From contig CM000152.2 of assembly GCA_000004695.1 (NCBI GenBank), positions 4,672,001 through 4,736,000 of the forward strand: a stretch of DNA of 64,000 nt, in the 5' to 3' direction. The notes beneath the pieces are model-generated. The model had not been told where the DNA came from and did not search any database. It worked only from the letters and a program-made list of their open reading frames with translations. Source of the stretch: Dictyostelium discoideum (taxonomy: Eukaryota). Positions 5,792-64,000 of this stretch are shown in pieces (the first letter of the stretch is position 1; each line of letters begins with the position of its first letter). The position numbers and the translations under genes are program-made.

Positions 5792-11134
<5,343 letters not shown>

Positions 11135-14749: not shown

Positions 14750-15178
14750 TTATTGTTTGGAATCGAAACTGACTAAATCTGGGATATCATCAGTGTTGGC
14801 ATTTTTAGCAGCGCTGAAAGCATCGGCCATCTTTTTAATTTGGTTGAGGTTTTCGGCACCGAGTTGAGCAATAACGTGTGGGATTGAAGCCATTGGTTTG
14901 GTTTCGTTTTTACCAGAGATGACAAAAGTTTTGCTGGCAGTTTGGACTGATGGGTTTTTGAAGTGGATGATGTTACCGTCAGCTTTGAAGAAATTGGCTT
15001 CTTCGACTGCACCAATTGGTTTGACACCGAGGTTAGCTAATTTAACGTGGAGTTTTTTGTCATCAACAGAGGTGGTGCTCTTGTGGGTGACTTGTTGCTT
15101 TCTACGCATGGAACCTTTACCACCAGTACGTACTCTTTCTTCAGCTAATTTGTTTAATCTTGCAATTTCGGCGTCCAT
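14750..15178 (-). CDS. btf3: BTF3 / nascent polypeptide-associated complex beta subunit.
   Basis: The 142-aa protein [34 protein letters not shown]...NPSVQTAS...QLGAENL aligns along its whole length with human BTF3/NACB. Codon usage is low-AT and looks highly expressed. Single exon. Coordinates are taken from the ORF track. Confidence 0.85.
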
Positions 15179-39232: not shown

Positions 39233-39307
39233 AAAAAAAATAAAAAAATAAAAAAATAAGTAAAAAAAAAAAGAAATATAATTTTTGGGTTTATAATTTT
39301 GTTTTAT

Positions 39308-40233
39308 TTATAATAATTTAATGAAATCAAATGTTTGAACATCATTTGTGTTTGTGATAGATTTGAAAGTGATGACAATGTTGCCAGATTCGAATGACCA
39401 TGACCAATATCCACTCAAGTTTGCATCATGTTTGATTACAATTGTATGATTTGAAGTTGCTTCTTGAACTGCTTCTAAAATCATTTCATCTGAACAACGT
39501 TTTGCAAGATTTGCAGCAACTTTTTCAACAATACCTGCAAAGATATGACCGAAACTATTCTTTAAATCATCAGCAACTTTTGGATAAACTTCTTGTAATG
39601 ATGTTTCATCAATTGACCAATCAGCTGATGATTTTAATGCTTTTTTGACAGCTGCTAAATTATCTTTCATTTTTTGTTCATTTGTTTTAATATTTAAACG
39701 AGTGCTTAAAGTGTAAACACCTTGAGTTGGAATAATTGTTTCTAATTTAAAAGTATTTACATCATTTGTGTTGCAAATCTTTGGACGGAATAAAATTTGA
39801 CAATCACCATTTTCAAATTGGAATTTCCAGTATGATGATAATTTTTCATCAGCACAAATAAAAACAAATTTCTTATTTGGAACAGCTGCTAAAAATGCTT
39901 CTTTAATTAATGGATCGGCTCCGACTTTAGCCATGTTTTTAGCAAGATTACCAACTACATCTTTATAAAAGATACTACCACAACTATTTGTAACCCAAGA
40001 GTCATTACATTTTGTAATAATATCTTCAAAATCAAATTCAATAGCAAAAGCTTCACCTAATGATTTTTCAATTGCAGCTAAATTTGTTTTTAAAGATTCT
40101 TCATTATCTTTTAATGATTTTCTAAAAATTTAAAAAAAGTTTGAATAAATATTTTAAATATTAAATATTAAATATCTTTTTTTTTTTTTAATTTTATTTT
40201 TAATAAATACCTTGAAGTTAAAGCGAGAGGCAT
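39308..40233 (-). CDS. Uncharacterised 278-aa protein with an internal two-fold repeat; copy A of a tandem gene pair. Two exons: 40211..40233 and 39308..40121.
   Basis: Exon 1 (MPLALTS-R) ends at an AGgtattt donor; a ttttag acceptor reconstitutes AGA. Exon 2 reads KSLKDNEESLKTNLAAIEKSLGEAF...MAKVGADPLIKEAF...YWKFQFENGDCQILFRPKICNTNDVNTFKLE...(second half)...YWSWSFESGNIVITFKSITNTNDVQTFDFIKLL. The two halves are homologous. No family assigned. Confidence 0.65.
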
Positions 40234-41357
40234 TTTGGGTTAATAGTTTATTTTTTTATTTATTTATTTTTTTTAAATAAGAGTTTATTATTTTTTAATG
40301 TTTGATCGAATGATTTTTAAAAAAAAAACATAGTGCTTTTATATTAAAAAAAATGAAATGGATCAGGGAAATTAGAAAAAAAAAAGATTTGAAAAAACAG
40401 AAACAATTTGAAATGGAAAATAATCAAAAAATAAAATATCTTTTGGGATATTTTTTTTTTTTTTTCTAATTTTTTTTTAGTTTTTTTTTTTTTTTTTTAA
40501 TCTTTTAATTGATTAAAAAGAAAAAAAAAAAAAAAATAAAAGAATTAAATTAGTTTTTTTTTTTTTTTAAATGATATTAATAATTATTTAAATTAAATTG
40601 ATTAGAAAGAAAAAATTAAAGATATATTTAATATCAATAAAAAAGGTGAAATAAAATATAATTTGAAATTTAATTTTTTTTTATTTTTGTATTTACAATA
40701 GCTTATTTTAAAGTTTTTTGAATAAGGACGAAATTTATGAATTATCCATTTTAAATTCCAACACGAGTAAAGGTTTCCACCAAAGTATGTGTATATATCT
40801 TTACTTCAGATAATAAGGAAACATTATTATTTAATTGAGATGTTCCAGTAATTATAGTTCCTGATATATAATTGGTTTGTGAAACATTTTTGATATTGTT
40901 AATTGAATTAAATGATTCTATTATTTTTTAAAATTTTTTTTTTTTTAAATTAGTTTATAATTTAATATTATTAAATCTTTATTTTTCTTTAATTTTTTTT
41001 TTTTTTTTTAATTAAAACTTACTAAATAACATTTTATAATTTTTTATAATTTAAACTAAAATAGTACTTTTATTGTAATGAATTAGTTTGAAAATAATTT
41101 TTCATTTTATAGTTTTTTTTTTTAAGTACTAAGTAATTTTAATTTTTTTAAAATTTCCTTAAAAAATTATCTATTATAAATTATGAATCTGTTATCATTT
41201 TTATTTTTAAAATATTGTCAAAAAACCACAACTCATCTTTTAATAATTTTTAAGTGTTAAAAGATTTTAAAAAATTTAAAAAAGTTGAAAATAAAAATAT
41301 TTTTGTATTTTGTGGTAAATGTGATAATTTTAAAAAATTAATTTTTACAAATTTTAT

Positions 41358-42263
41358 TTATAATAATTTAATGAAATCAAATGTTTGAACATCATTTGTG
41401 TTTGTGATAGATTTGAAAGTGATGACAATGTTGCCAGATTCGAATGACCATGACCAATATCCACTCAAGTTTGCATCATGTTTGATTACAATTGTATGAT
41501 TTGAAGTTGCTTCTTGAACTGCTTCTAAAATCATTTCATCTGAACAACGTTTGGTAAGATTTGCAGCAACTTTTTCAACAATACCTGCAAATATATGACC
41601 GAAACTATTCTTTAAATCATCAGCAACTTTTGGATAAACTTCTTGTAATGATGTTTCATCAATTGACCAATCAGCTGATGATTTTAATGCCTTTTTAACA
41701 GCTGCTAAATTATCTTTCATTTTTTGTTCATTTGTTTTAATATTTAAACGAGTGCTTAAAGTGTAAACACCTTGAGTTGGAATAATTGTTTCTAATTTAA
41801 AAGTATTTACATCGTTTGTGTTGCAAATCTTTGGACGGAATAAAATTTGACAATCACCATTTTCAAATTGGAATTTCCAGTATGATGATAATTTTTCATC
41901 AGCACAAATAAAAACAAATTTCTTATTTGGAACAGCTGCTAAAAATGCTTCTTTAATTAATGGATCGGCTCCGACTTTAGCCATGTTTTTAGTAAGATTA
42001 CCAACTACATCTTTATAAAAGATACTACCACAACTATTTGTAACCCAGGAGTCATTACATTTTGTAATAATATCTTCAAAATCAAATTCAATAGCAAAAG
42101 CTTCACCTAATGATTTTTCAATTGCAGCTAAATTTGTTTTTAAAGATTCTTCATTATCTTTTAATGATTTTCTAAAAATTTAAATAAATATAATTAGTTA
42201 CAATTTATTTTAATAAATTAAAAATAAAAATAATAATTACCTTGAAGTTAAAGCGAGAGGCAT
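41358..42263 (-). CDS. Copy B of the tandem gene pair, 2050 bp from copy A. Two exons: 42241..42263 and 41358..42171.
   Basis: The exons are about 99% identical in nucleotide sequence to copy A, with two Ala-to-Thr replacements (NLAK to NLTK in both repeat halves) and a few synonymous changes. The 69-nt intron is unrelated in sequence to copy A's 89-nt intron. Confidence 0.65.
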
Positions 42264-42927
42264 TTTGGATTAATTTTGATTATTATTATTAATATTATTA
42301 TTAATTTAAATATGTTTTTTGAATTTATTGAATGATTTGGAAAAAAAAAAAAAGAAATTTAATTTATACAAAAAAAAAAGAAAATAATTAAGATTATTAT
42401 TTAAAAAAAAAAAGAAGAAAATAAAAAAATAAATAAAAAACAAACAATTAAAAAACTTTTTAGAAATGATTTGGAAAGGAGGATTTTTAAGATATTTTCA
42501 AAAAAAAAAAAAATAAAAAAAAAAAATGAAAAGAGATATTTTTAATAATTGAACGATTTTTACAATAAAGAAAGGTAAAGTTTGTGCGCTTTGAAATTTA
42601 AAATGGATTTCTAATTGGAATTAAAGAAGAAAAAAACAATATAACCAGGTAATTGGTCACGATCAGTCATAAAAAAAAGAAAATAATAATCTGTTTATCC
42701 TTTTTTTTTTTTTTTAGTATTTTTTTTTCATAAATTTTGATTTTTTTTTTTTTTGGGTTTTTATCAATATTATTTAAAAAATAAAAATAAAAATAAAAAA
42801 AAAATTTGGAGATTTGTTTTTTTAAAAATGAATTAAAAAAAACTGAAAGAAACGTTTCGTTTTTACCTTATTTTCGTGAAAAAAAAAAAAAAAAAAATAT
42901 ATTTGCATGTGAAAAAAAATAAATAAA

Positions 42928-55361: not shown

Positions 55362-55600
55362 GAAAATATTATTGGTGGTCGATTTTTCTTTAGTTTTTAG
55401 GAAACTTTTTTTTTAAAGAGATTACTGTTGGTGCTCAAGATATTTCTTTAGGTTTTAGGAAACTTTTTTTTTTAAAAGAGATTATTATTGGTGCTCAAGA
55501 TATTTCTTTAGGTTTTAGGAAACTTTTTTTTTAAAGAGATTACTGTTGGTGCTCAAAATATTGCTTTAGTTTTTAGGAAACTTTTTTTTATTTTGAAAAC
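55362..55600. repeat. Minisatellite of about 59 bp in 4 tandem copies (unit roughly AAAGAGATTACTGTTGGTGCTCAAGATATTTCTTTAGGTTTTAGGAAAC(T)n).
   Basis: Four contiguous copies at 85-95% identity, immediately upstream of the duplicated promoter of SAP-family copy 1. Confidence 0.8.
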
Positions 55601-55822
55601 TCCCATTTTTTTTTTTATTACAAAATGTTTTTTCGTTTTTTCTCAAATCTGAAACCTTTTTATTTCTCAAATACCCAAGAATTATTTACTTTTTTTTTTT
55701 TTTTTTTTTTTATTTATTTTTTTTTTTATTTATTTATTTTTTTTTTTTTTTTTTTTTGTAATCATCCAAGATAATATTGAAACTATTTATTTATACAAAT
55801 AAAAAAAAAAAAAAAAAAAAAA

Positions 55823-56653
<831 letters not shown>

Positions 56654-56799: not shown

Positions 56800-57180
56800 A
56801 AAATTAAAAGAGTGAAATTTGAAGTGATTGATGTATGGATACTGAGTTTCGAATGCCACTAGAGTTGTTGCAATGAATGATACAATAATCACCCATGCCA
56901 ATAAAGTAATAGTTCCCATCGGAATCTGTTATTCTCTCTTACCATCATTATTCTTATCTAATGAATGGTACTACTAAAACAATATTTTATTTATTATTGA
57001 TTGCGTTAATTTGAAATAATATTCACCTGTGGATTCGACCACTGAATCATATGAAATTACAACAAATTGATATTGAAAACCGTCGATATCTGTTTGAATT
57101 GTTGATGTTTCACCATTACCACTGTGTGTATATTAAAATATACATGTTCCCATGAAACAACTTAATCTCAAACCTTTAAC
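56800..57180 (-). repeat. Repeat island B: a non-AT-rich, degenerate coding-like element (minus orientation) homologous to island A at 11600..12420.
   Basis: The reverse complement of 57076..57120 (GGTAATGGTGAAACATCAACAATTCAAACAGATATCGACGG) matches 11631..11667 (GGTGGAACATCAACAATTCCAACAGATGTTGACGG) at about 33/38. A second block matches around ...AATGATGGTAAGAGAG versus AATGACAATGGTAAGTAAG. Frames are broken by stops. Confidence 0.4.
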
Positions 57181-57387
57181 AAGTATAAATTTTTTATATT
57201 ATTTATTTATTTCTTTTATTTTCTTTGTCTATATTAAATAATATCATTTGATTAAATGTAATATTTTTAATAAAAAAAAAAAACTCCCACCATTTTTTTA
57301 TTACAAAATGTTTTTTCGTTTTTTCTCAAATACCCAAGAATTATTTAATTTTTTTTTTTTTTTTTTTATTTATTTTTTTTTTTTATT

Positions 57388-57420
<33 letters not shown>

Positions 57421-57487
57421 TAATCATCCAAGATAATATTGAAACTATTTATTTATACAAATCAAAAAAAAAAAAAAAAAAAAAAAA

Positions 57488-57506
57488 ATGGGAGATGATG
57501 AAAGTG

Positions 57507-57557
<51 letters not shown>

Positions 57558-59902
57558 TTGGATGTAAAATTTTAAAAACAGTTATTAGTGGTAGGAGAAG
57601 TATATTATTGGAATCATATAATAATAATAATAAAAATAAAAATAATAATAATATTATTATTAAAAGCTATGAAGATGAATTTAATTTATTTAAATTAAAT
57701 AATAAAAAGGAGTTATCAATTGAAAAATTACAAACAATTGCAAAAGATAATGGATTACCATTTGATGAAAATGAAAATGATTTATATAATAGAATTGAAA
57801 TATATTATAATATTAAAATTAAATTAGAAAAAGAAGTTAAACAACAACATGATAATAATCCATTTAATAAAGGTCACCCAATATTATTAATTAATAATGA
57901 TAATAAAAATGAAATACTATTTTGGAAAGTTTTTAGAAATAAATTAATTTTTAAAAATATATTTTCAAATTTCAAATATTCAAATTTATTTAATTATTCA
58001 AGATTATTCTCAGTTTATAATATTTATAATGATTTTAATAATTGTATTGAAATCATTAGAGATAAAGTAAAATCAAATAGTTATTTAGCATTTGGTCATT
58101 GTTTAGATAATTTCAGTGGTTTGTCAACTATTTTAAAAAATATTAAAAAAGATACTCAAGAAAATCAATTATTTCATAACCGATTATTAAATAATTATTG
58201 TAATAAATTAATTCATGCTGGTAATTTTTTTAAAATTATTATTGAGTCATTTAATTTGTTAGCATTAAAATCATTTTTTAATAATAAAACTTTAAAAATT
58301 AAAAAAGTTAAAATTAATTTTGAAATTAATAAAATTTCAGAATTAAAATTTTTAGAATATTTATTTAATAATCATAAAGAATATATTGAAATTCAAAAAA
58401 TAATTATCACTATTTTAAAACCAAATATATTTGAAAAATTTAAATTGGGTGAATTAATAAAATTGGTTATGATATTATATGATGATGAAATTTACACAAA
58501 AATTGAAAAACTAGATAATTTAAAAAATAAATTAATATATAATAAAATTAAAGAATTTCAATTTTCAGATAAAGAATTAAATGAAAATTTATTAACACTT
58601 TTAAAACCAGTCACTAAATCAGACAGATTTTACATAAAATTAAATGATAATTATAATAATAAATTAAACATAATTTTTAAATATATTAATATATTTTACA
58701 AATTAGTTGGAGGATCAACTATAAAACCATTTGAATATTATTTCACTCACATGGGTGAAAAAGAATTAATTGAAAACAAACCAAATGAAATCAATCAAAG
58801 GCAAACTAAAATGGTGATAAATTCAAATATTAAAAGAATTCTTTTAAAAAATAATAATGATACACATGAAACTATCAATAGTATTAAATCAATTGATATG
58901 TTGGATTCCCTTTTTAATAATTATCAAGATCAATTTTTTAAAGATAGAAATGAAAATTGGAAATATGTTAATAGTATTACAATTTTAAAACATTATGAAA
59001 AATTAATGCTATCATTAGGTAGAAAATTTTCATTTAATAATTCTAATGTTATTGAGATTGGGTCAAAAGGAATTCAATCAAAATTATATTTAATAGCAAT
59101 TAATAATCCATCATTATATCAAGTAATTGGTGAAAAAAAAAAAAAAAAGGATTATGTTTTAAATTTAAATTTTATTGCCTTTCCAGGCAAATTAACTTTT
59201 ATATCATTAATAGAATCGAATTATTTTAAAAATATTAAAATTTCAGAATCCTTAGAATTTACTAAATATATTACTATATCAAGATGGATTTCAGATAATT
59301 GTATTTCAATTTTTTCTGATAATAATAAACCTGAAATTTATATTCAATTACCAAATTTAAAAAAAATTAATATTGTTAGTGGAATAAGTAGTGGTAGTGG
59401 TATAAGTAGTGGTAGTGGTGGTAATGATGGGAAAATTAAAATTATTTTAGATCAACTTCAATTAGTTCAAATTTTATATAATTCAAATCGTATTGATGAT
59501 ATTTTTAAAATTAAAAATTTAGATAGTAATATAATTACTAGTTTTATTAAAAATATAAGTCCACATATTTCATTAGATTTCGTTAATAGATTAATTATTA
59601 GAGGATATTTTAATAATTATCAAAAAAAAAATAATTTTTTAAATCAAATAGTTTTAAATAATAATCTTCCAATTATTAAATTTTTATATTTAAATCATAG
59701 TAGTTGTTTCTTTTATTATAATTTAAAAGATTTACTTTTATTAGCAATTAGTAATGATAATTATCAAATAGCTGAACTTTTTTTTGTATTTTGTAACTTT
59801 ACAAGAAAAGAATTGAAATCAGTAATAAAAACAAAATTTTCATTAATAGAACTAATCCATGGAAATAAATTAAAATTAGGAATAGAAATAATAAAAAAAT
59901 AA
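57488..59902 (+). CDS. SAP-family paralog copy 2 (804 aa), full length.
   Basis: MGDDESDN plus poly-Asn, then the [20 protein letters not shown] segment shared with the gene at 5792..11134. Next comes a SAP-like helix-extended-helix ([33 protein letters not shown]), then the family core ([75 protein letters not shown]). Single exon. Confidence 0.7.
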
Positions 59903-59919
59903 AAAATAAAATAAGAATT

Positions 59920-59970
<51 letters not shown>

Positions 59971-60143
59971 AAAGGAATAATTTTTTTTTATTTAGAAATA
60001 AAAAAAACTTCAAAAATTAGTGAAAAATAATAATAAATGTTTTTATCTATTTTTTTATTTAATATAGTTATAAAACCTCATTATTTGGGAAATTTTTTTT
60101 TTTTTTTTTTTTTTGATCAACCTAATGCCTAAAATAAATAATA

Positions 60144-60730
60144 ATGAATAAAAGAACAAGAGATGGTAACCAAGAATTTGGTGATAAAAAATTAAAAGAA
60201 AATAATTATAATGACAAAGATAATAATATTAAAAATAATGAATTTAAATCATTTAAATCAGAATAAAGAAGAGTTAACAATTGAAGAATTACAAACAATT
60301 GAATTAGATAATGGATTACCATTAAATGGTGATGAAAATGAATTGTGATAATAGAATTTAACAATATTATAATATTAAAATTAAATTAGAAAAAGAATTT
60401 AAAAAACAACAAGATAATAACCCATTTAATAAAAGTCAACCAATATTATTAGTAATTAATAATGATAATAAAAATGAAATACTATTTTGGAAAGTTTTTA
60501 GAAATAAATCAATTTTTAAAAAGGTATTTTCAAATTTCAAATATTCAAATATATTTAATTATTCAAGATTATTCTCAGTTTATCATATTATTAAAGATTT
60601 TAGTAATGGTAGCTAGCTACTCCCCTCGAAGAGGGGATGGTTAGCGGTGCGACAGGGGGGAGGAGACAGGGGGAACTGAAATCATTAGAGATAAAGTAAA
60701 ATCAAATAGTTATTTATCTTTTATAAGATT
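60144..60730 (+). pseudogene. SAP-family pseudogene. It has in-frame stops and frameshifts and carries a 68-nt GC-rich insertion.
   Basis: MNKRTRDGNQEFGDKKLKENNYNDKDNN...FKSE-stop, then EELTIEELQTIELDNGLPLNGDENEL-stop-stop, then [62 protein letters not shown]. Next comes the GC-rich insert, then [14 protein letters not shown], and homology ends about 60730. Closest to copy 3 (MNKRTRDKND...). Confidence 0.6.
60610..60677. other. GC-rich (about 62% GC) 68-nt insertion with a perfect 7-bp hairpin (TCCCCTC-GAA-GAGGGGA) and a GCTAGC palindrome, interrupting the SAP-family pseudogene.
   Basis: GCTAGCTACTCCCCTCGAAGAGGGGATGGTTAGCGGTGCGACAGGGGGGAGGAGACAGGGGGAACT replaces a few bases between the ...DFNN and CIEIIRDK codons that are conserved in copies 2 and 3. 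No tRNA T-loop (box B) or other recognisable RNA motif. Confidence 0.6.
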
Positions 60731-61269
60731 ATTAATATTACGAGCATTAAAAAAAAAAATTAGAACAAACAACATTTAATTTTGTATTTAAACCATAAAA
60801 ATTCCTGCCTATTTAAAAAAAAAAAAAAAAAAAAAACAAATTAAAAGAGAATATATTTTAAAAAAAATAAAAAATAAACTTTATTTTATTACTATTAAAT
60901 TAAATATTATTGTTATTCTTAATCAAATATATTTTAACAAAAAAAAAAAAAAATAACCCCATCCAAATTAATAATAGACATTTTTTTATAGATCTATGAT
61001 ATTTGAAATTTGATTTAGAAAATTTTGAACATCTTTAAAAATAATATTTAGTTAAAAAAAATTAAATTTGAAAATAAAAAAAAAAAAGCCTTTTCGAATA
61101 TTTAAATTATCCTTTTGGCAATTAAACCCATTTATTTTTTTTTTTTTTAATTTTTTTTTATTTTATTTTATTTTTTTATTTTTTTTCTTTTTTTTTTTTT
61201 GGTAAGACCACTTTTTAATTTTTTTTTTATTTTTTTTATTTTTTTATTTTCAATAAATTGGTTAGAAAA

Positions 61270-62867
61270 ATGAATAAAAGAACAAGAGATAAGAATGACC
61301 TAGATTTAAATGAAGAAGAGGGAATTAATAATAAAAAATTAAAAGAAGATAATGATAGTAGTAGTAATATTGTTAAAAGTTATGAAAATGAATTTGAATC
61401 GTTTAAATTAAAGAAAATAGGAGGGGAATTATCAATAAAAAAGTTACAAACAATTTTAAAAGATATTGGATTACCACATAGTGGTAGAAAAGTTGATTTA
61501 ATTAATAGAATAGAACAATATTATAATATTAAAATCAAATTAGAAAAAGAAGTTGAACAACAACAAAATAATAATCCATTTAATAAAAGCCAACCAATAT
61601 TATTAATTAAAAATGATTATGAAATACCATTTTGGAAAGTTTTTAGAAATAAATCAATATTTAAAAATATATTTTCAAATTTCAAATATTCAAATATATT
61701 TAATTATTCAAGATTATATTCAGTTAATAATATTTTTAATGATTTTAATAATTGTATTGAAATCATTAGAGATAAAGTAAAATCAAATAGTTATTTAGCA
61801 TTTAAACAAATTAAAGATTTAGATGAATATAGTATAAAAACCAATGAAACAACAGACGAAGATGGATTAATAAAGATTTTAGATAGCTTTAAAGAAGAAA
61901 CTCAAGAAAATCGATTATTTTATACTCGATTTATAAATAACTATTGTAATAAATCAATTCACCCTTTAATTTTACTTGGTAGAATCGTTAAAGCTTCAAA
62001 TTTATTAGCATTAAAATCATTTCTCAATACAGAAATATATGTTAAAAGTAAAATTCAAATTAAAATTGAAATTAACAAATTTTCAGATTTACAAATCTTA
62101 GAGTTTTTAATTAATAAATACTATAGAAATAATGATGATAATAATAAAAAAGAAAAAGAAAGTGAAAAAGAAAGTGAAAAAGAAAGTGAAAAAGAAAAAG
62201 AAAAAGAAAAAGAAAGTGAAAAAGAAAAAGAAAGTGAAAAAGAAAAAGAAAGTGAAAAAGAAAGTGAAAAAGATAGTGAAAAAGATAGTGAAAAAGAAAA
62301 AGAAAAAGAAAAAGAAAAAGAAAAAGAAAAAGAAAAAGAAAAAGAAAAAGAAAAAGAAAAAGAAGAAAAAGAAGAACTTATTCAAAAAGATTTAAATGAA
62401 AATGAAATTGATAATCTTAAAAAATTAAAAGAAGGTAGTGAAGGTAATGATAATGATAAAAAAAAAGATGAACAAGATGAAAATTTAGTTTTTATTGAAT
62501 CAATTCGTATAAATGATTTCAATATATTTAAAGAACTTAAATTAGGTGAATTAATTCATTTAGCTAAAACAATATATCAAAATGAAAAAATTGTTAAATT
62601 ATTAGAATTACCAACCTATCATAAAGTTTCAATAGATTTTCCAGAATACATCTTTTTTTCATTAGGTGAAGAATTTAAAAATGATTATATTATAGAGAGA
62701 ATTAGAGAATCCAAACTTGATTTTTCAAATAAAATTAAAGAGGGTTTATCTTTTTTTAATGAAATTAAAGAATTTCAATTTACAGATAAAGAATTAAATG
62801 AAAATTTATTTATGCTTTTAAAACCATTAACAAATTGGGATAGACATTTTTCAAAATTAAATGATAA

Positions 62868-62905
<38 letters not shown>

Positions 62906-64000
62906 TCAATAATAATAGTAATGAACAAGGTTGTGAATTATCATTAGTAAAATATAATATTTTAGAATTATATAATAATAAATTAAGAAAGAATTATCAA
63001 AGATTAGAAGAATATTTTAGATTTCAAAGATATGAATTTGCTCAAAAAGATTTTAAAGAAATTTCAAGTATTCATAAGGAACAAATTGAAATTGAAAAAG
63101 AAATTGAAAGTTTATTTCAAAAAGAAAATGAATTTATTGAAAAACAAAATGAAAAAGATAGACTTCTTGAATCGGATGAAATTTGTAAAAAGAAAAAGAT
63201 AGTATTAGGTTACATATTTTTACTATTCAATTTATCAATGCCAAGAAGGAAACCAATTGAATATTATCTATCTTTTAAAGATGAAAAAAAGGTCATTGCA
63301 TATGGCACTCAAATGAAAGATGAATTTTTAAATTATGGTATACCAAATAATGAGATACTAAGTAGAATTTCAGAGATTGGGTATGGGTCAAATACAAGAG
63401 ACCGATTTAAAATGATAATGAATTCAAAGTTTTTAATTGAAAAGCCATTTAAAGAACATTTTATTAATCCATTGAATTCACCTTTAATCATTGCCAATGT
63501 TAAATCAAAGGATATGTTGGATTTATTATTTAAAAATTTTAATCAACAATTCTTTAAAGATAATAATAGAAATTGGAAATATTGTAATAGTATAGAGATT
63601 ATAGAATATTATGAAAAGTTAATGCAATCATTGGGTAGAAAATTCTTATTCTCTTTTGATTTTGCTAACCGTTGTACAATAGAATGCAAAGGAATTGATA
63701 TTTATCCAAAACTATTATCAAGAGCAATCAGTAATCCAACACTTTATAATCATAGTTCAAATCTTGCTCCAAAAGAAAGATTATTAAAAATCAATGATAG
63801 AACCATTGTAAAACAAAGAGCATTCCTATCGTTATTAGAATTAAATTATTTTAAAACTATTACATTTGACCGATCTTTTACTTTTAACAAATATTCTTAT
63901 AAAATTTCAAGATGGATTTCTGATAATTGTATTTCAAATATATCAAAACTCAATTTTAATGATAATGGTTATACAAAAATTAAAATTCAATTACCAAATA
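61270..64000 (+). CDS. SAP-family paralog copy 3. More than 910 aa lie within the window and the open frame continues past the window end.
   Basis: ATG at 61270. The frame was verified codon by codon to 64000 with no stop; it is absent from the ORF track only because it runs off the end. It has a classic SAP domain (GELSIKKLQTILKDIGLPHSGRKVDLINRIEQYY) and the family core ([84 protein letters not shown]). It also has a (GAAAAAGAAAGT)n coding minisatellite at 62143..62375 (SEKE/KEKE repeats) and poly-Asn at 62870..62910. Confidence 0.7.

Follow-up and report, generated by a model that had tools for sequence, protein, structure and literature searches.

A 60-nucleotide piece of an fnk-like gene within the poly-asparagine tract of an unrelated SAP-family gene in Dictyostelium discoideum: a likely case of copying through shared AAT repeats

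The stretch of DNA that is discussed here (the window) comprises 64,000 nucleotides (nt) of Dictyostelium discoideum, namely positions 4,672,001 to 4,736,000 of contig CM000152.2 (assembly GCA_000004695.1), with a G+C content of 21%. Two unrelated genes in this window share a near-identical segment of 60 nt. The first is an fnk-like (FNIP) gene, referred to as fnk. The second is a member of a cluster of SAP-family genes and is called copy 2, while its version of the 60-nt segment is called the patch. In both genes, the segment stands directly next to an (AAT)n tract that encodes poly-asparagine (poly-Asn). The features of the two genes are the following:

5792..11134, minus strand: fnk-like gene, the donor, with two tandem kinase-like domains, a leucine-rich repeat (LRR)-like region and 9 FNIP repeats
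11024-11134, minus strand: proposed exon 1 of fnk with a hydrophobic N-terminus, inferred from GT/AG sites
10879 to the stop at 5792, minus strand: exon 2 of fnk
8900..9016, minus strand: donor-side repeat (AAT)12-TAT-(AAT)26, 39 codons of poly-Asn, directly preceding the donor segment
8840..8899, minus strand: donor segment, encoding residues 1-20 of the second kinase-like domain (beta-hairpin)
57280..57508, plus strand: 5' module of copy 2, consisting of ~210 nt upstream and ATG GGA GAT GAT GAA AGT GAT (MGDDESD), near-identical to that of copy 1 and ending at (AAT)n
57488..59902, plus strand: open reading frame (ORF) of copy 2, the recipient, 804 residues
57509..57559, plus strand: recipient-side repeat (AAT)16 followed by ATT, the 5' junction of the patch
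57560..57619, plus strand: patch, 20 codons, with the substitutions AGG>AGT (R>S) and AAA>GAA (K>E), both non-synonymous
57620..57661, plus strand: AAT-rich stretch (14 residues) on the 3' side of the patch, a leftover of the native N-terminal poly-Asn, followed by the native KSYEDEF

In an ungapped alignment, 57560-57619 (plus strand) and the reverse complement of 8840-8899 are identical at 58 of the 60 positions. The identity breaks off sharply after ...CATAT and dissolves into (AAT)n on the other side. The segment is read in frame in both genes, contributing 20 residues to the fnk ORF (5792-10555, minus strand, 1587 uninterrupted codons) as well as to the copy 2 ORF (57488-59902, plus strand). 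The 41-mer GGATGT...GAGAAG occurs at two sites only in the window, one in fnk and one in copy 2, while 0 are expected from 100 dinucleotide shuffles. No second segment common to the fnk-like gene and the SAP-family cluster was detected in a dust-masked self-BLAST of the window, and a scan of metagenomes with a 35-mer of the segment gave 0 matches. The similarity past CATAT (AAAAAT...ATTATTATT) was considered as a real continuation, but it was rejected as a low-complexity coincidence.

The patch is also present in a second assembly. Over 18 kb, the window is 99.7% identical to CM142509.1 (assembly GCA_054883475.1, locus L003), with 5 mismatches and 12 indels, and because of these differences the two can be regarded as independent assemblies. 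The same patch is found there, with the same two variant bases in copy 2. Since the patch is unchanged in an independent long-read assembly, it is not an assembly artefact or a chimeric join. The newer assemblies were generated in a Nanopore and Illumina project that covers AX2-214 and nine wild isolates (PMC12745789).

In fnk, the segment marks the start of a domain. An exhaustive HMMER search of a representative library, in which relatives that are >50% identical are collapsed, was performed with 450 fnk residues starting at GCKIL as the query. It returned 419 representative homologue clusters, and many of the alignments start at query residues 1-12. The protein identity of the representatives is 25-50%. 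The closest one, P0011, is ACTFIR_000383 from a wild D. discoideum isolate (its gene lies in locus L005), while the next-best representatives reach only 47-50%. In an alignment of 15 homologues, the 20 residues correspond to a conserved opening (approximately [KR][IV]L[KR]T..G.R.I...) that is located ~50 residues before a PQFPGTE motif, and this opening stands at the same place in dictyostelid and in bacterial-looking homologues. The ACTFIR fnk orthologue contains GDDD-(AAT)6-GGATTC AAAATTTTAAAAACAGTTATTAGTGGTAGGAGAAGGATATTATTGAAATCATAT GAAAAA at the orthologous position. As the segment is kept at the orthologous place in ACTFIR and at the start of the domain among the homologues, it is native to the fnk-like gene.

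The length of the poly-Asn run before this kinase-like domain differs between isolates. It counts 39 codons in the laboratory lineage (8900-9016) versus 6 in ACTFIR (L005 7012-7029), in fnk genes that are otherwise 95.5% identical between AX4 and ACTFIR. The longer AAT tract is the presumed pairing partner in the mechanism that is proposed below.

No kinase match was found for the fnk domain in sequence searches of Pfam and the PDB. An AlphaFold2 (AF2) model of the 330-residue domain, based on a 14-sequence alignment, has a mean predicted local distance difference test (pLDDT) value of 83 and a predicted template modelling (pTM) score of 0.86. Its best Foldseek matches in the PDB are the type II phosphatidylinositol 4-kinases PI4KIIalpha (4hne, TM-score (TM) 0.49, E 1e-4) and PI4KIIbeta, followed by many protein kinases. 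Judged from this model, the domain is kinase-like (bilobal) in its predicted fold. In the alignment, G146 and N150 are invariant and D145 and D166 nearly invariant, and the core contains the motifs GDGNLGN and IDNDQ. In their longer form, GDGNLGN[FY]I and IDNDQ[SA]FMP resemble DRGNDNWLI and IDNGLAFP of PI4KII. In the predicted model, residues 1-20 fold into the first beta-hairpin (strands 3-7 and 12-15) and begin a helix; they are all that copy 2 has of the ~330-residue domain. According to the model, the patch is no domain copy and no folding unit, but just the first beta-hairpin of the kinase-like domain.

The kinase-like domain, which fnk shares with P0016, P0020, P0022, P0025 and P0032 among others, is not represented in Pfam. 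Some homologues are long, bacterial-looking proteins with OTU-like and Sel1-repeat regions, which possibly originate from amoeba symbionts.

On the recipient side, copy 2 matches Q54TP0 (P0001) of D. discoideum AX4 (E = 7.6e-150, 56% identity over 42% of the query), which is a 'SAP DNA-binding domain-containing protein' according to NCBI/UniProt. No SAP match was obtained for copy 2 itself in Pfam at E <= 0.1, and the ORF has no protein or called-gene record in the searched databases. In the AX2 annotation, an 865-residue product starts from the ATG of copy 2. This model (L003 11654-14781) merges copy 2 with a downstream pseudogene fragment by means of predicted introns; the 804-codon ORF is uninterrupted up to 59902, which suggests that the merged model is wrong.

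The direction of the transfer can be read from the relatives of both genes. The native N-terminus of the SAP family consists of M(K/N)KRTR...KKLKE, a poly-Asn run and IK(N/S)YENEF, and the 21 residues of copy 2 after the patch represent the tail of this native poly-Asn run. None of the other SAP-family genes examined in five assemblies contains the segment. These are P0001-P0006, copies 1 and 3, the pseudogene fragment, and the genes in the loci of ACTFIW (L001, including two further family genes), ACTFIY (L004) and ACTFIR (L006) and in L002, where the genes in L002, L004 and L006 were checked with tblastn and blastn-short. The fnk gene, in turn, keeps the segment in both AX4 and ACTFIR and contains no SAP-family sequence, while the relatives of the recipient lack the patch; the copying was non-reciprocal. 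At the two sites where copy 2 departs from AX4 fnk, ACTFIR fnk is the same as AX4 fnk. Because the two fnk alleles agree there, both differences are private to copy 2 and have arisen after the transfer. Furthermore, copy 2 contains a TGT codon like AX4 fnk, where ACTFIR fnk has TTC; with two fnk alleles compared and the change unpolarised, the shared TGT fits a donor from the AX4 lineage. On the strength of these sequence comparisons, the direction from the fnk-like gene to copy 2 can be considered settled.

An earlier note on this stretch had reported the 58/60 match, its position in frame right after poly-Asn in both genes, the AAT-rich stretch and native family motif behind it in copy 2, and its absence from copy 3; the ungapped alignment and the ORFs bear this out (57620-57661 and then KSYEDEF in copy 2, IVKSYENEFESFKL at that place in copy 3). 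That the fnk segment leads into a kinase-like domain agrees with both the homologue alignment and the predicted fold. The note had also proposed a recent transfer between non-homologous genes, and indeed the exchange is non-reciprocal, with the 97% identity confined to the 60 nt. A common module in fnk-like and SAP-family genes, which would have pointed to shared ancestry instead, was not found: the fnk relatives share 25-50% protein identity and the other SAP-family genes examined lack the segment. Polarisation by a related orthologue, as the note had suggested, gives the direction from fnk to copy 2, as the ACTFIR fnk gene possesses the segment natively.

The borders of the shared segment are informative. 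On the 5' side, the identity ends at the boundary of (AAT)n and unique sequence, exactly so in fnk and one ATT codon past (AAT)16 in copy 2. The window contains 28 (AAT)n tracts with n of at least 6, and the probability that a random oriented position lies no more than 3 nt past the end of such a tract is ~0.0009. With so low a probability per site, the coincidence of the border with a tract end in both genes is not a matter of chance. The two tracts are on opposite strands, 48.7 kb apart. The homology available at the invading end amounts to (AAT)16 (48 nt) in copy 2 and (AAT)12-TAT-(AAT)26 (117 nt) in fnk. At the 3' junction, fnk goes on with GAAAAATTATT and copy 2 with AATAATAAT, which have AT alone (2 nt) in common.

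Two other delimitations of the transferred unit were tried. The KSYE common to both (fnk AAATCATATGAA, native AAAAGCTATGAA) was rejected as the place of a second junction, as the real junction is located 42 nt upstream of the native KSYE. A unit reaching upstream to the GDDE of fnk (NGDDE-(AAT)n versus MGDDESD-(AAT)n) was rejected as well, since 2 of the 12 bases differ and a 6-nt indel is present. Among 78 tracts inspected, GG.GATGATGA just before (AAT)n is seen in fnk and copy 2 only. The shared GDDE stretch is possibly a coincidence or the trace of an older event.

Taken together, we consider it likely that the patch is a 60-nt templated insertion, or short ectopic conversion patch, that was transferred from fnk into the poly-Asn tract of copy 2 by way of the shared (AAT)n. 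As judged from the anatomy of the junctions, the N-terminal poly-Asn tract of copy 2 would have received a copy of 60 nt of fnk (63 nt with the ATT codon), with no transfer in the other direction. The reaction may have started with a double-strand break, or a stalled or collapsed fork, within the (AAT)n of copy 2. The 3' strand of copy 2 ending in (AAT)n would then pair with the long, inverted (AAT)39 of fnk, 48.7 kb away, and DNA synthesis would proceed for 60 nt into the unique sequence of fnk. Subsequently, the nascent strand would fall off and rejoin the remaining AAT-rich end of copy 2 by the 2-nt (AT) microhomology. As AAT is read as Asn in one and the same phase in the two tracts, the copied piece necessarily keeps the reading frame of the donor at the 5' junction. 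The earlier note had invoked trinucleotide-repeat microhomology and exon-fragment shuffling. Microhomology applies to the 3' junction with its 2 nt, but not to the 5' junction, where long repeat homology is found (48 and 117 nt of AAT). An in-frame fragment was indeed moved; exon-fragment shuffling is nevertheless an overstatement, as merely the first beta-hairpin of a ~330-residue domain has reached a gene with a dN/dS of ~1.

This ratio of non-synonymous to synonymous substitution rates (dN/dS) was obtained with the ACTFIW orthologue, of which the last 880 nt are covered by L001. For the last 266 codons of copy 2 (L001:80-880; clean alignment, 231 identities), the dN/dS is 1.09. Lower values were obtained for fnk (0.40, AX4 versus ACTFIR) and for copy 3 (0.37, versus its ACTFIW orthologue). 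Purifying selection on copy 2 is thus weak or lacking, even though the ORF remains open. As only a hairpin was transferred, and into a recipient that evolves neutrally, the patch is most likely a functionless neutral passenger. Concerning the age of the event, the private changes of copy 2 amount to 2 of 60 nt (3.3%, with a very wide error), compared to an AX4-ACTFIR divergence of 4-5% in fnk.

Several points weigh against the proposed insertion and its interpretation. The homology at the 3' junction stops at 2 nt, and because the second end is without homology, the event is not a classical two-ended gene conversion. Synthesis-dependent strand annealing (SDSA), break-induced replication mediated by microhomology (MMBIR) or fork stalling and template switching (FoSTeS), and polymerase-theta-type joining would look alike in such a product and cannot be distinguished on the basis of the sequence alone. 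The donor search covered the window and the homologue loci, and the library hides relatives that are >50% identical, so a closer fnk paralogue is possible. Long-term neutrality agrees poorly with an 804-codon ORF that has stayed open in an AT-rich genome, as is the case for copy 2, and the dN/dS of copy 2 is based on just 266 codons. Finally, the private changes of copy 2 would allow an origin before as well as after the split of AX4 and ACTFIR.

As an alternative, transfer and direction could be as proposed while the (AAT)n tracts were not involved, a free fnk fragment having been captured as filler during end joining. The microhomology of just 2 nt at the 3' junction would suit such a capture, and poly-Asn tracts are common anyway (28 in the window with at least 6 AAT). 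There would, however, be no reason for a filler to start at the donor's first unique base after (AAT)n and to land at the 3' end of the (AAT)n of the recipient (~0.0009 per boundary). Two other junctions of the locus are also situated in AAT runs, and filler capture is therefore considered unlikely.

The donor could also have been a closer paralogue elsewhere in the genome, or an allele that has since been lost, instead of the fnk gene of the window. The collapsing of relatives with >50% identity in the representative library leaves room for such a paralogue, and the two mismatches are not accounted for by the fnk gene of the window. Both are private to copy 2, however, with AX4 and ACTFIR fnk in agreement, and the TGT of copy 2 is the AX4 fnk allele rather than the TTC of ACTFIR. 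The next-best representatives are just 47-50% identical. Another donor is thus very unlikely.

Likewise very unlikely is a single event with multiple switches that also brought the 5' module (promoter and MGDDESD), and possibly the GDDE-(AAT)n of fnk, to copy 2, after which copy 1 received the module. It is true that the N-terminus of copy 2 differs from the native M(K/N)KRTR...KKLKE, that the 5' modules of copies 1 and 2 are ~2% apart, near the 3% of the patch, that GG.GATGATGA precedes (AAT)n in fnk and copy 2 only among the 78 tracts inspected, and that MMBIR is known for multi-switch events (PMC8421209). The GDDE stretch, however, with its 2 of 12 differing bases and 6-nt indel, is far more divergent than the 60-nt patch, a search of the window and loci revealed no source for the 5' module, and these age estimates have a very wide error.

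A chimera of reads mis-joined across (AAT)n is scarcely conceivable, even though AAT repeats are difficult to assemble and the AX4 reference was originally assembled from Sanger shotgun reads: structure and both variants recur in the independent long-read assembly, the match is 58/60 and not 60/60, and the 804-codon ORF runs through the patch in frame. The same verdict holds for shared ancestry of a common domain module, or for the reverse transfer from copy 2 to fnk, where the in-frame peptide after poly-Asn in both genes is outweighed by the 97% identity within 60 nt and none beyond, by the conserved domain start in 419 clusters (including the ACTFIR orthologue) and by the absence of the segment from the other SAP-family genes examined.

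The favoured templated insertion is not the only rearrangement at AAT runs in this locus. The other members of the SAP-family cluster in the window are the following:

55596..55843, plus strand: 5' module of copy 1, the same as that of copy 2, with ~2 substitutions in ~110 unique nt and a 24-nt internal duplication
55823..56653, plus strand: ORF of copy 1, 276 residues, truncated, with a body that is ~76% identical to copy 2
55844..55951, plus strand: (AAT)36 of copy 1, joined immediately to AAAAATGAA (KNE...ILFWKVF)
60144..60722, plus strand: SAP-family pseudogene fragment with stop codons, a GC-rich insert and an N-terminus of the native MNKRTRD type, without the patch
61270 (ATG)..64000, plus strand, running off the window: copy 3 with the native N-terminus MNKRTRD...IVKSYENEFESFKL, without the patch

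The 5' module (promoter/5' untranslated region and MGDDESD) is near-identical in copies 1 and 2 up to (AAT)n, compared to ~76% identity for the gene bodies. No other copy or source of this module was found in the window or loci. The N-terminus of copy 2 is thus doubly foreign, with the 5' module and the patch. In copy 1, (AAT)36 is joined to the place where the other family members have AATAATGATAAT (NNDN), and the whole SAP-motif region is missing. The locus therefore contains a small cluster of rearrangements at AAT runs, namely the patch, the shared 5' module and the deletion of the SAP region in copy 1.

The pseudogene fragment is interrupted by a GC-rich insert of ~65 nt (AGCTAGCTACTCCCCTCGAAGAGGGGATGGTTAGCGGTGCGACAGGGGGGAGGAGACAGGGGGAACTG) at 60612-60676 (L003 ~14811-14841). 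On its two sides, the sequence aligns to neighbouring bases of copy 2 (58046/58048), with almost no loss. Features of the insert are a short hairpin (TCCCCTC-GAA-GAGGGGA) and a stretch, GGAGGAGACAGGGGG, that resembles GGGGAGAGACAGGGGAGAGACA, which has been proposed as the telomere repeat of Dictyostelium (PMC12745789). Rfam and tRNA scans of the insert returned nothing. From its sequence, it may be another templated or captured insertion.

The gene content of the SAP-family cluster varies among isolates (L001, L002, L004 and L006 versus window 57000-64000). Between the orthologues of copies 2 and 3, ACTFIW and ACTFIR possess two extra full-length members and a DUF5898 gene, whereas nothing but the pseudogene fragment is found at this place in the laboratory lineage. 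Conversely, copy 3 and P0001 are separated in the laboratory lineage by Pirin and ependymin-like genes, which are lacking there in ACTFIW. Elsewhere in the window, a 1.1-kb duplicate is found at 39302-40431 and 41352-42455, with copies that are ~2 kb apart and 90% identical. Each copy contains a 208-residue ORF (MAKVGADPLIKEAF...), and the two ORFs are one residue apart. The coding parts are far more alike than the flanks, which suggests conversion or selection.

The event can be seen as an unusually clean case of a known class, microsatellite-seeded templated insertion or ectopic conversion, and it has no evident function. It offers a natural example in which a coding trinucleotide repeat of two unrelated genes apparently served as the homology for ectopic copying, with donor, recipient, junctions and polarity all identifiable. 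A repeat in the same phase keeps the copied piece in frame, which suggests a simple, intron-free way to chimeric coding sequences in repeat-rich genomes. D. discoideum contains thousands of (AAT)n tracts that code for poly-Asn. It may be speculated, though we regard it as rather doubtful, that these coding (AAT)n tracts serve as recombination adaptors that preserve the codon phase, through which genes that use AAT for Asn could pair at ectopic sites and swap the neighbouring coding sequence in frame. If common throughout the genome, this would make trinucleotide repeats an intron-independent path to chimeric proteins and promoter swapping, and it would be one reason for the weight of such tracts in the evolution of the Dictyostelium genome. 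The present case is a single event in an unconstrained gene, and its worth lies in being a starting point for a census of the whole genome, for which ten long-read Dictyostelium assemblies are now available.

The event can be compared to several known systems. Transduction by a transposon or retroelement is excluded because the flanks are plain (AAT)n and AAT-rich coding sequence; as regards tRNA gene-targeted retroelements (TREs), a tRNA scan revealed no tRNA genes in the window as their landmarks. As in intron-mediated exon shuffling, a piece of one gene resides in frame inside another. Here, however, a fragment of 20 residues was moved without introns, and intron-mediated shuffling is excluded since both copies are within uninterrupted ORFs (804 and 1587 codons).

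Ectopic gene conversion by SDSA, for instance between the tgr paralogues of Dictyostelium (PMC12745789), likewise yields a non-reciprocal patch from a donor on the same chromosome. In the present case, however, the genes are non-homologous, the homology is in a repeat at one side and the second end is unable to anneal. Template switching to non-allelic sites has also been described at broken microsatellites (PMC11161834), where breaks in microsatellites prone to non-B structures are followed by a shift of repair synthesis to a non-allelic template, much as proposed here. That work is experimental, was performed in human cells and concerns extrachromosomal circular DNA (eccDNA) products, whereas the patch is a single natural product that is fixed in the chromosome of an amoeba, with a switch apparently guided by a second copy of the microsatellite.

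A further likeness is to the templated insertions of the MMBIR type (PMC8421209) and to FoSTeS. There too, a break or fork receives tens of nt from a template at an ectopic site and the donor remains unchanged. Inverted templates, like the one here, are common in these systems, and one of the junctions is microhomologous. The near-exact copy of the template that is expected for such insertions is seen in the 58/60 match to the inverted 8840-8899. As for the switch points, the 3' junction offers 2 nt, but the 5' junction is in long repeat homology, beyond microhomology. The initiating junction is thus a trinucleotide repeat of 48-117 nt instead of a few bases, the template is located 48.7 kb away in an unrelated gene, and the product is a fixed germline coding variant in which the reading frame was kept.

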